From positions 518,528 to 550,527 of the forward strand of contig NZ_OZ060371.1 of the NCBI RefSeq assembly GCF_964056675.1: a stretch of 32,000 bases of DNA, given 5' to 3'. The number at the start of each line of letters is the position of its first letter. Position 1 is the first letter of the stretch. Under the pieces are notes generated by a model that worked only from the letters and a program-made list of their open reading frames with translations, had not been told where the DNA came from and searched no databases. Source of the DNA: Buchnera aphidicola (Anoecia corni). GTDB lineage: Bacteria; Pseudomonadota; Gammaproteobacteria; Enterobacterales; Enterobacteriaceae. Shown in pieces: positions 29,899 through 31,298 of this stretch. A program made the position numbers and the translations under genes.

Positions 29899-31298
29899 CT
29901 ATATATTATCGATATATGGATTAATACTATTCTTAAAAAACAATTTAACCGGACTTCCAAACATTTTTAGTTGTTTTTGAAAAAAATTTTCCAAATATCT
30001 TTTATACGACACAGGTAAAGCATTTACTTTATTTCCATGAATAACTATTTTTAAAGGACTAAATCCTACTGGATTTGCATGTTTTAATTTTATTCTTCTA
30101 CCTTTATTCATAGGTGGATTATGATGCGTTATCGCATTTCTTAATATACTAGTTAAACGAGAAGTACTAACATTTTGAATAGAAGACAAATATACCTTAA
30201 AAATAGATTCTAATAATTCCTTTATTCCAATATTAAATTTAGCTGAAATAAAATGTATTTTAACTAAATTCGTATTTTTAAATTTTAAATTTATATATTG
30301 TTTAATTCTGTTTCTGTTTTTTTCTATAACAGAATCCCATTTATTAACCGCAATAATGACTGTTTTTCCATGTTTTAAGGCATAATATAATAAAAAAAGA
30401 TCTTGATGAGTTATATTTTCTTCAGGATTAACAATTAAAATAGAAATTTTACTGTTTTTGATTGATTTTAATGATTTTTTAATAGAAATATCTTCTATAT
30501 CGTCATAATTTTTTTTTTTATTCCAGCAGTGTCAACAAATATATATTTTTTATTATAATGCTGAACTGGAACTGACAAACTATCTCTAGTTGTTCCAGAA
30601 AAACTAGAAGTTATTACTCTATCTATTCCAATAATAGAATTAATTAAAGTAGACTTACCGACATTAGGTCTTCCTATTACGGATACATTTATAGGAATAT
30701 TGTTACTAGATGTTAATTTATTTAACTTACTCTTTTTATAGAATACACTAGGAAAAAAAAATTTTTTATTCTGTTCAATATTATTAACATTTTTTTTTAC
30801 TTTATGTATCTTACATATTATATTTTTAATAAACCACTGTTTTATTTGCTTTTTATTTAAAAAAGACACATAATACATGTGTTTAAAACCTAAACTATGA
30901 AAATCATTCACTTCTAATTTTTCTTTTACTTTATCCATTTTATTTATTAAAACTATAATTCTTTTTTTTTGGACGCGAAGCATTTTAGCTAAAGTATAAT
31001 CATCATTTGTAATACCCTCATACCCATCAACGACAAATAAAACTACAGTAGCTTCTTTTATAGCTATCAAAGTATGGCGTTCTATTTTTTTCTCTAAATT
31101 AGTTTTATTTTTTGAATAGAAAATGCCAGCCGTATCAATGATCAATGTTTCTTGCTGATCATCTAAATTACCATAATTTCTATCTCTAGTTAATCCTGGA
31201 AAATCTGAAATTAAAGCATTTCGAGTATTGGTAATCATATTAAATAATGTAGATTTTCCCACATTAGGTCTACCAACTAAAGTAACTTTTTCCTTCAT
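29899..31298 (-). pseudogene. der: Ribosome-associated GTPase Der (EngA), complete except for a single frameshift inside an 11-nt poly(A) tract; possibly still expressed via slippage
   Basis: Track ORF 30495-31298 covers GD1 plus the first half of GD2 (VTLVGRPNVGKSTLFN...DTAG...NKMD; VSVIGRPNVGKSTLIN...GTTRD...FVDTAGIKKK). After the A-run (T11 on the + strand, 30509-30519), the other frame is open to the stop at 29899. It continues as expected for Der: NYDDIEDISIKKSLKSI...ILIVN...AVNKWD...ISAKFN...RRIKLKHANPVGFSPLKIVIHGNKV..LPVSYKRYLENFF. The track lists only its tail, 29899-30189. Reading 12 A instead of 11 restores one ~466-aa protein collinear with E. coli Der. Confidence 0.9.
30509..30519 (-). 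repeat. Homopolymer tract (A11 on the der coding strand) at the der frameshift site
   Basis: The + strand reads cataa-ttttttttttt-attcc. On the coding strand this is GGA ATA AAA AAA AAA ATT ATG ACG ATA TAG. With one more A it becomes GGA ATA AAA AAA AAA AAT TAT GAC GAT..., in frame with the rest of der. Confidence 0.95.

Follow-up and report, generated by a model that had tools for sequence, protein, structure and literature searches.

A one-nucleotide frame defect in a poly(A) tract of the ribosome-assembly GTPase gene der, common to two Anoecia-associated Buchnera and probably corrected by transcriptional slippage

Tamas et al. (2008) and Wernegreen et al. (2010), as cited in PMC3017870, PMC5009743, and bioRxiv 10.1101/2022.08.28.505559, described a class of otherwise intact genes of AT-rich insect endosymbionts whose frame is broken by one indel in a long run of A on the coding strand; different species have the frameshift in common, and purifying selection acts on the genes. 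Here we describe der (engA), encoding a ribosome-biogenesis GTPase, in a 32,000-nt stretch of Buchnera aphidicola (Anoecia corni) DNA (NZ_OZ060371.1, positions 518,528 to 550,527; G+C 22.6%), hereafter the window. The sequence features of the Tamas 2008 class are found at this gene: a single indel in an A run of at least about 9 nt, a conserved tract, and purifying selection downstream. It differs from the named cases in the gene and in the Anoecia host clade, and it is known here from sequence. The cases named in the three citing sources are cell-wall genes, a histidine biosynthesis gene, pheA, dnaX, dnaG, pth, and others, with neither der nor the Anoecia clade among them; the text and supplementary files examined of the bioRxiv preprint likewise hold no mention of der. 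The window gene is a further, well-supported case of an established phenomenon and reveals no new mechanism.

Essential information-processing genes with a single homopolymer indel have also been reported from Blochmannia vafer and B. floridanus, namely dnaX, dnaG, and pth; the dnaX indel is common to both species, and the authors read the genes as expressed via slippage at a reduced level (PMC3017870). Those cases concern a different symbiont and different genes, and for the window der, selection downstream of the shift is measured directly. Within Buchnera, the pheA gene of Periphyllus symbionts is similarly disrupted at a poly(A) tract that related strains have kept (Manzano-Marin et al., bioRxiv 10.1101/2022.08.28.505559), though pheA is a metabolic gene whereas der encodes a ribosome-assembly factor. 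The annotation policy of the same authors is to treat such poly(A)-disrupted genes as functional. A poly(A) run reportedly also interrupts tssM of Citrobacter rodentium, where slippage yields truncated and full-length variants (PMC4256274); unlike the symbiont der, this is a secretion-system gene of a free-living enterobacterial pathogen. The programmed −1 frameshift of Escherichia coli dnaX likewise uses an A-rich slippery heptamer (A_AAA_AAG) read by tRNA-Lys, but it is accompanied by an upstream Shine–Dalgarno-like element and a downstream hairpin, neither of which is evident at the window der. Moreover, the dnaX shift leads to a shorter product, whereas the der shift is needed for the full-length one.

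The whole der gene occupies 29899–31298 on the minus strand and has one frame defect. Its upstream frame as encoded (30495–31298, minus strand) starts with the ATG at 31298 and reads ...DTAGIKKKIMTI before a TAG stop (30497–30495), yielding a 267-amino-acid (aa) product with the C-terminus GIKKKIMTI. This product comprises GTPase domain 1, the linker, and motifs G1–G3 of domain 2; it is without G4 and G5 of domain 2 and without the KH-like domain. Four codons before the stop, and just 3′ of the domain 2 G3 motif (DTAG), lies an A11 tract (30509–30519, minus strand; T11 on the plus strand) that is the frameshift site, the presumed slippage site, and the sole lesion of the gene, the rest of which is in frame. 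The downstream frame (29899–30531, minus strand), displaced by +1 nt relative to the upstream frame and overlapping it by 37 nt around the tract, encodes the rest of GTPase domain 2 (G4 NKWD, G5 ISAK) and the KH-like domain. The cut therefore falls within GTPase domain 2, with G3 on one side and G4 on the other. The other two frames of the downstream half hold 22–26 stops, so its open frame is not due to chance. One A added to the tract (A12) gives a protein of 466 aa reading ...DTAGIKKKNYDDIEDISIKK..., while removal of two (A9) gives 465 aa; the restored junction is ...GIKKKNYDDIEDISIKK..., with NYDDIEDISIK as the tryptic piece past the lysines. A sequence-only reading of the same DNA had described both halves (31298–30495 and ~30518–29899) as open and had placed the only lesion in this run, with 11 A leading to GIKKKIMTI and a stop and 12 A to a reading that aligns with E. 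coli. Both statements stand, and the second frame is open from as far upstream as 30531.

Homology searches indicate that the restored protein is a full-length Der orthologue with tandem GTPase domains and a KH-like domain. The A12 product matches the NCBIfam equivalog TIGR03594 (GTPase_EngA) with 459.2 bits (cut-off 306.7) over profile positions 2–432 of 432, and aligns over residues 4–464 to E. coli Der (PDB 3j8g_X; 362 bits). This confirms the junction alignment to E. coli Der that the sequence-only reading had proposed: DTAGIKKKN--YDDIEDISIKK aligns there, its loop after domain 2 G3 being shorter by 2 residues. The earlier claim that every G-motif and the KH-like domain are intact holds for G1 (GRPNVGKS at 9 and 209), G.TRD (GLTRD at 35, GTTRD at 235), G3 (DTAG at 55 and 256), and G4 (NKMD at 119, NKWD at 319) of both domains, for G5 of domain 2 (ISAK at 351), and for the KH-like domain (PF14714, 79.9 bits, profile positions 2–81 of 81, in the downstream frame). 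It does not hold for G5 of domain 1, where VSFL at 144 is a degenerate form of what is a weakly conserved motif. Pfam MMR_HSR1 is matched twice in the protein, and GTP_EFTU scores 36.3 bits in the downstream frame. The Der/EngA proteins of E. coli (3J8G), Bacillus subtilis (2HJG), and Thermotoga maritima (1MKY) have the same full-length tandem GTPase plus KH-like architecture; unlike them, the window der is encoded in two frames, and its product has the 2-residue-shorter loop and the degenerate domain 1 G5. By orthology, this Der would be an active GTPase that takes part in assembly of the 50S subunit.

The nearest relatives of the window proteins belong to the Buchnera of Anoecia oenotherae (81% identical in the N-terminal open reading frame (ORF) of der, 76% in YfgM), and the der gene of that symbiont has the same frame defect. 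We took its sequence from three assemblies (JGI 3300009457, NCBI CP033012.1, and the Logan assembly of SRR7796603), in which it is identical. The two der genes align over 1400 nt with no gap. The tract reads GGAAT-A11-TTATGACGATATAG in the window and GGAAT-A12-TATGATGATATAG in A. oenotherae, that is, A11+TT versus A12+T: the total length is equal, and the sequences differ solely by a T/A substitution at the run's edge. Both species consequently need the same correction (+1 or −2), and both have the same 0-frame TAG at the same position and the same 267-aa ORF. The comparison with a sister strain that the sequence-only reading had called for thus finds the same defect at the same site, and these data indicate that it is real and old, common to the window and the A. 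oenotherae Buchnera. In a third Anoecia-type lineage (JGI 3300009453), which came to light through YfgM and relatives of Fdx and IscS and differs from the other two by ~12–16% of nucleotides in der, the assembly breaks on both sides of the tract: one contig runs out at der codon 172 and the other picks up at about codon 341, with the tract outside both. The first 172 codons (contig L084, 4335–4850) and the last 125 (contig L085, 6546–6923) are open there. A further Anoecia-type der fragment was not found in a search with the C-terminal half.

To measure selection downstream of the defect, we estimated the ratio of nonsynonymous to synonymous substitution rates (dN/dS) by the NG86 method between the window and A. 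oenotherae, with codons 268–465 read in the shifted frame. Amino-acid identity over these codons is 88.9%, and the nucleotide differences are distributed as in a translated gene, at 9.6%, 2.0%, and 21.2% of codon positions 1, 2, and 3, respectively. Their dN/dS of 0.117 can be compared with 0.206 for codons 1–263 and with 0.08–0.34 for five intact neighbors (yfgM, fdx, hscB, iscU, and iscS); for codons 268–330, right after the tract, it is 0.12. The open parts of der in JGI 3300009453 give 0.18–0.36, with 0.18–0.21 for the last 123 codons. In intergenic DNA, 17.8% of sites differ between these two genomes and gap events number 15.6 per kb, a rate at which ~9 gap events would be expected in the 594 nt of the downstream half; there are 0. 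When the 65 observed substitutions were placed at random, the frame stayed open in 0.5% of 20,000 runs (P = 0.005), and 22 or fewer amino-acid changes were obtained in 0 of 20,000. The substitution pattern thus indicates that the downstream frame has been translated for as long as these lineages have been diverging, and der is almost certainly still read and still under purifying selection, as the sequence-only reading had argued; the measurements apply to the part downstream of the shift. Constraint of this kind fits with the retention of EngA/Der among the ribosome-assembly factors of all Mollicutes and of minimal translation sets (PMC4014445).

The downstream frame offers no evident way of being translated on its own. 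In the window it has no ATG, GTG, or TTG for 114 codons, that is, before 30189, and the start-capable codon at that position lies past G4 and G5 and opens only a 96-aa KH fragment (TTG ORF, 29899–30189). The ATG chosen by the gene caller in A. oenotherae, giving a 134-aa product, is ATA in the window, and the constrained codons 268–330 precede it. On these grounds we rejected a separately initiated C-terminal protein. The lack of a separate start together with the constraint on the downstream frame implies that full-length Der must come from correction of the frame at the tract.

We consider it probable, and the best explanation of the data, that a genomic 1-nt deficit in the lysine-coding A11 tract is rescued mainly by slippage of RNA polymerase, with der kept under selection. 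Faithful A11 transcripts would be translated to the stop four codons after the tract, producing the 267-aa fragment. In a sizeable fraction of transcripts the polymerase would slip backwards on the A/T run and add one extra A (A12), and less often it would drop two (A9); both kinds of transcript would encode full-length Der with its two GTPase domains and KH-like domain. The corrected transcripts would then supply enough of the 50S-assembly factor for purifying selection to persist. Insertion of +1 A by the polymerase, a process demonstrated by experiment for other Buchnera and Blochmannia genes, appears the likeliest route to the full-length protein, and we infer from precedent that most correction takes place during transcription and often enough to be useful. 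Insertions made by transcription in Buchnera mostly add one base within an A/T run, and they become exponentially more frequent as runs lengthen, up to 11 nt (PMC5574713); one added base is exactly the correction that der needs. For long poly(A) runs of Buchnera and Blochmannia, the review PMC5009743 gives 12–50% corrected-frame transcripts, citing Tamas 2008, and PMC3017870 gives ~30%; both trace the published endosymbiont cases to heterogeneous transcripts.

Several points weigh against slippage by RNA polymerase as the explanation. The step that restores the frame is drawn from published precedent, not from transcripts, reads, or protein of this symbiont. The tract is covered by two genomes only, and an ancestral tract in frame is presumed: a genome-contig search with the restored Der gave, among the matches listed, only distant free-living bacteria and no outgroup Buchnera. 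A junction-region protein alignment and a degenerate DNA pattern for PEENITHQDL yielded nothing useful among metagenome contigs, the DNA pattern missing even the A. oenotherae JGI contig. Finally, the sequence A_AAA_AAA would suit a −1 slip of the ribosome perfectly as well, and the same protein would result. Separately, two candidates for a broken der in small genomes (P0185 and P0198, contigs of ~0.4–0.56 Mb) were rejected as fragmented genes on large non-symbiont metagenome contigs.

Correction in translation, with ribosomes slipping −1 (or sliding) on the lysine-coding A run to give the same GIKKKN... junction, is the alternative that survives best, although we regard it as unlikely to be the main route. 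The 0 frame, ATA AAA AAA AAA ATT, holds the X_XXY_YYZ pattern (A_AAA_AAA) in phase, and a −1 shift there gives exactly the A12 reading. Ribosomes are known to slide on poly(A). Translational ‘correction’ of indels in endosymbionts and organelles is treated in PMC5009743. Yet no stimulator of such a shift stands out at the site. The 109 nt 3′ of the tract fold at −9.2 kcal/mol with a minimum free energy z of −0.11, and a two-species consensus fold of the region downstream of the tract contains no compensatory or covarying pairs; we therefore rejected a frameshift-stimulating RNA structure 3′ of the tract. Upstream, there is no AGGAGG-like element, and the only candidate, a GGA 2 nt before the run, seems unconvincing as a Shine–Dalgarno-like stimulator. 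Against the ribosomal route stands also the attribution of the published endosymbiont cases, in PMC3017870 and PMC5009743, to heterogeneous transcripts. The transcriptional and ribosomal routes are not mutually exclusive, and a ribosomal contribution is possible.

The frameshift could be more than tolerated. We think it doubtful, but conceivable, that the tract serves as an expression device in Anoecia-clade Buchnera and was fixed by selection. It might then set a fixed ratio of truncated to full-length Der, or throttle the level of Der in a slow-growing symbiont; the truncated product (GTPase domain 1, linker, and partial domain 2) would invite comparison with the tau/gamma split of dnaX, and selection would keep both the out-of-frame length and the unbroken run.

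Rescue at the DNA level, in which replication slippage would maintain a minority of A12 genome copies, the source of Der, behind an A11 consensus, seems quite improbable. Long A runs are hot spots of replication slippage (PMC3017870), and a consensus sequence is compatible with minority alleles. The window itself belongs to a symbiont that is highly polyploid. The window itself supplies controls for this idea, however, since its intact genes iscS, iscU, and hscB contain in-frame poly(A) runs of A11, A11, and A12. In three lineages the iscU and hscB runs are of identical length, so that length changes are rarely fixed at this timescale, and the der defect is itself unchanged in two lineages. 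The heterogeneity reported in the endosymbiont cases is among transcripts, according to papers citing Tamas et al. (PMC3017870, PMC5009743). The three in-frame runs lie at 28381–28391 (iscU), 28885–28896 (hscB), and 27246–27256 (iscS); the iscS run is unbroken only in the window, a G or C interrupting it in the other lineages. Slippage at these runs should yield out-of-frame transcripts of intact genes.

A homopolymer sequencing or assembly error, with a true tract in frame and der an ordinary intact gene, was the alternative offered by the sequence-only reading and is now very unlikely. Long homopolymers are prone to error, and both Nanopore and Illumina reads may have gone into the window genome, should it be that of the Anoecia corni strain of bioRxiv 10.1101/2022.08.28.505559. 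But the same defect at the same tract occurs in a sister genome that was sequenced independently (and, if the window is that A. corni strain, in a different study) and is identical in three assemblies, and the A11 and A12 control tracts of iscS, iscU, and hscB are in frame, with equal lengths in three lineages for the latter two. An error would thus have to have happened twice, separately, with the same sign and at the same site.

Equally hard to credit is a split gene, in which the 267-aa fragment and a separately started C-terminal polypeptide would assemble non-covalently into a working Der. GenBank and RefSeq do list two coding sequences (CDSs) for A. oenotherae, of 267 aa plus 134 or 198 aa, and in both species the 0-frame TAG is overlapped by an ATA codon. 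To yield the 198-aa call, however, translation would have to begin at ATA, a very poor initiator codon. The 134-aa call has its ATG replaced by ATA in the window and excludes the strongly constrained codons 5′ of it (268–330; dN/dS 0.12). The downstream frame of the window, as described above, reaches its first conventional start only beyond G4 and G5. The division would also cut GTPase domain 2 internally, between G3 and G4.

That der is a recent pseudogene, dead but yet to decay, is scarcely tenable. In favor of this reading, the encoded frame stops prematurely, and other window genes are eroding (rep, an hflK-like ORF) or lost (hscA). Yet the defect is common to lineages that differ at 17.8% of intergenic sites, the downstream half has taken 65 substitutions at a dN/dS of 0.12 while staying free of indels and stops, rep illustrates decay in the same genome, and all Mollicutes as well as minimal translation sets retain EngA/Der (PMC4014445).

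Public records of the A. oenotherae gene (CP033012.1, L002 942–2338) present it as QCI19574.1, a ‘GTPase’ of 267 aa, and QCI19573.1, a ‘hypothetical protein’ of 134 aa; RefSeq also lists WP_315984279.1, a 198-aa ‘GTP-binding protein’ with coordinates from the ATA codon. Neither record flags der as one frameshifted gene, and gene-content comparisons that rely on such split annotation could list der as broken or missing for the Buchnera of Anoecia. The locus provides a quantitatively supported example of an essential ribosome-assembly gene that appears to have survived over long evolutionary time with an out-of-frame genome sequence. With A11 and A12 runs and the same defect in two species, it is moreover a natural test locus for the dependence of slippage on tract length and for distinguishing transcriptional from ribosomal correction.

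The gene order of the window is purA, miaA, pgi, orn, hslVU, fpr, dapF, rho, trxA, a rep remnant, ilvC, ilvD, iscS, iscU, hscB, fdx, der, and yfgM. The rep helicase pseudogene (20147–22515, minus strand), between trxA and ilvC, has the motifs NEYQD, SSKGLEF, and VGFTRVK in three frames with 66–87 stops each, which upholds the contrast with der drawn in the earlier reading; a 101-aa ORF in this region matches TIGR01074 with 86 bits, against a cut-off of 951. In the isc cluster, hscA is absent, a gap at 29060–29376 separating hscB (28568–29059) from fdx (29377–29703). The spacing between hscB and fdx is ~310 bp in all three Anoecia-type lineages (also L001 5923–6228 and L085 5688–6019). The retention of hscB under constraint (dN/dS 0.22) without hscA is odd, as it leaves a J-protein lacking its dedicated Hsp70 partner.

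Elsewhere in the window, a 249-aa ORF (4134–4883, minus strand) resembles HflK/Band_7 only weakly (31.6 bits, with the equivalog cut-off at 660; Pfam Band_7, 25 bits). The adjacent gap of ~950 bp (3185–4133) contains no ORF of at least 90 aa and has four A9/T9 runs; the two segments are probably eroding hflK and hflC. A 427-aa ORF (14312–15595, minus strand) has no NCBIfam or Pfam match and is long for a chance ORF at this G+C content. A tRNA cluster at 17710–18120 (minus strand) encodes Arg(TCG), His(GTG), and Pro(TGG) in that order, an arrangement that resembles the E. coli argX-hisR-leuT-proM operon minus leuT, with TCG instead of CCG as the Arg anticodon.

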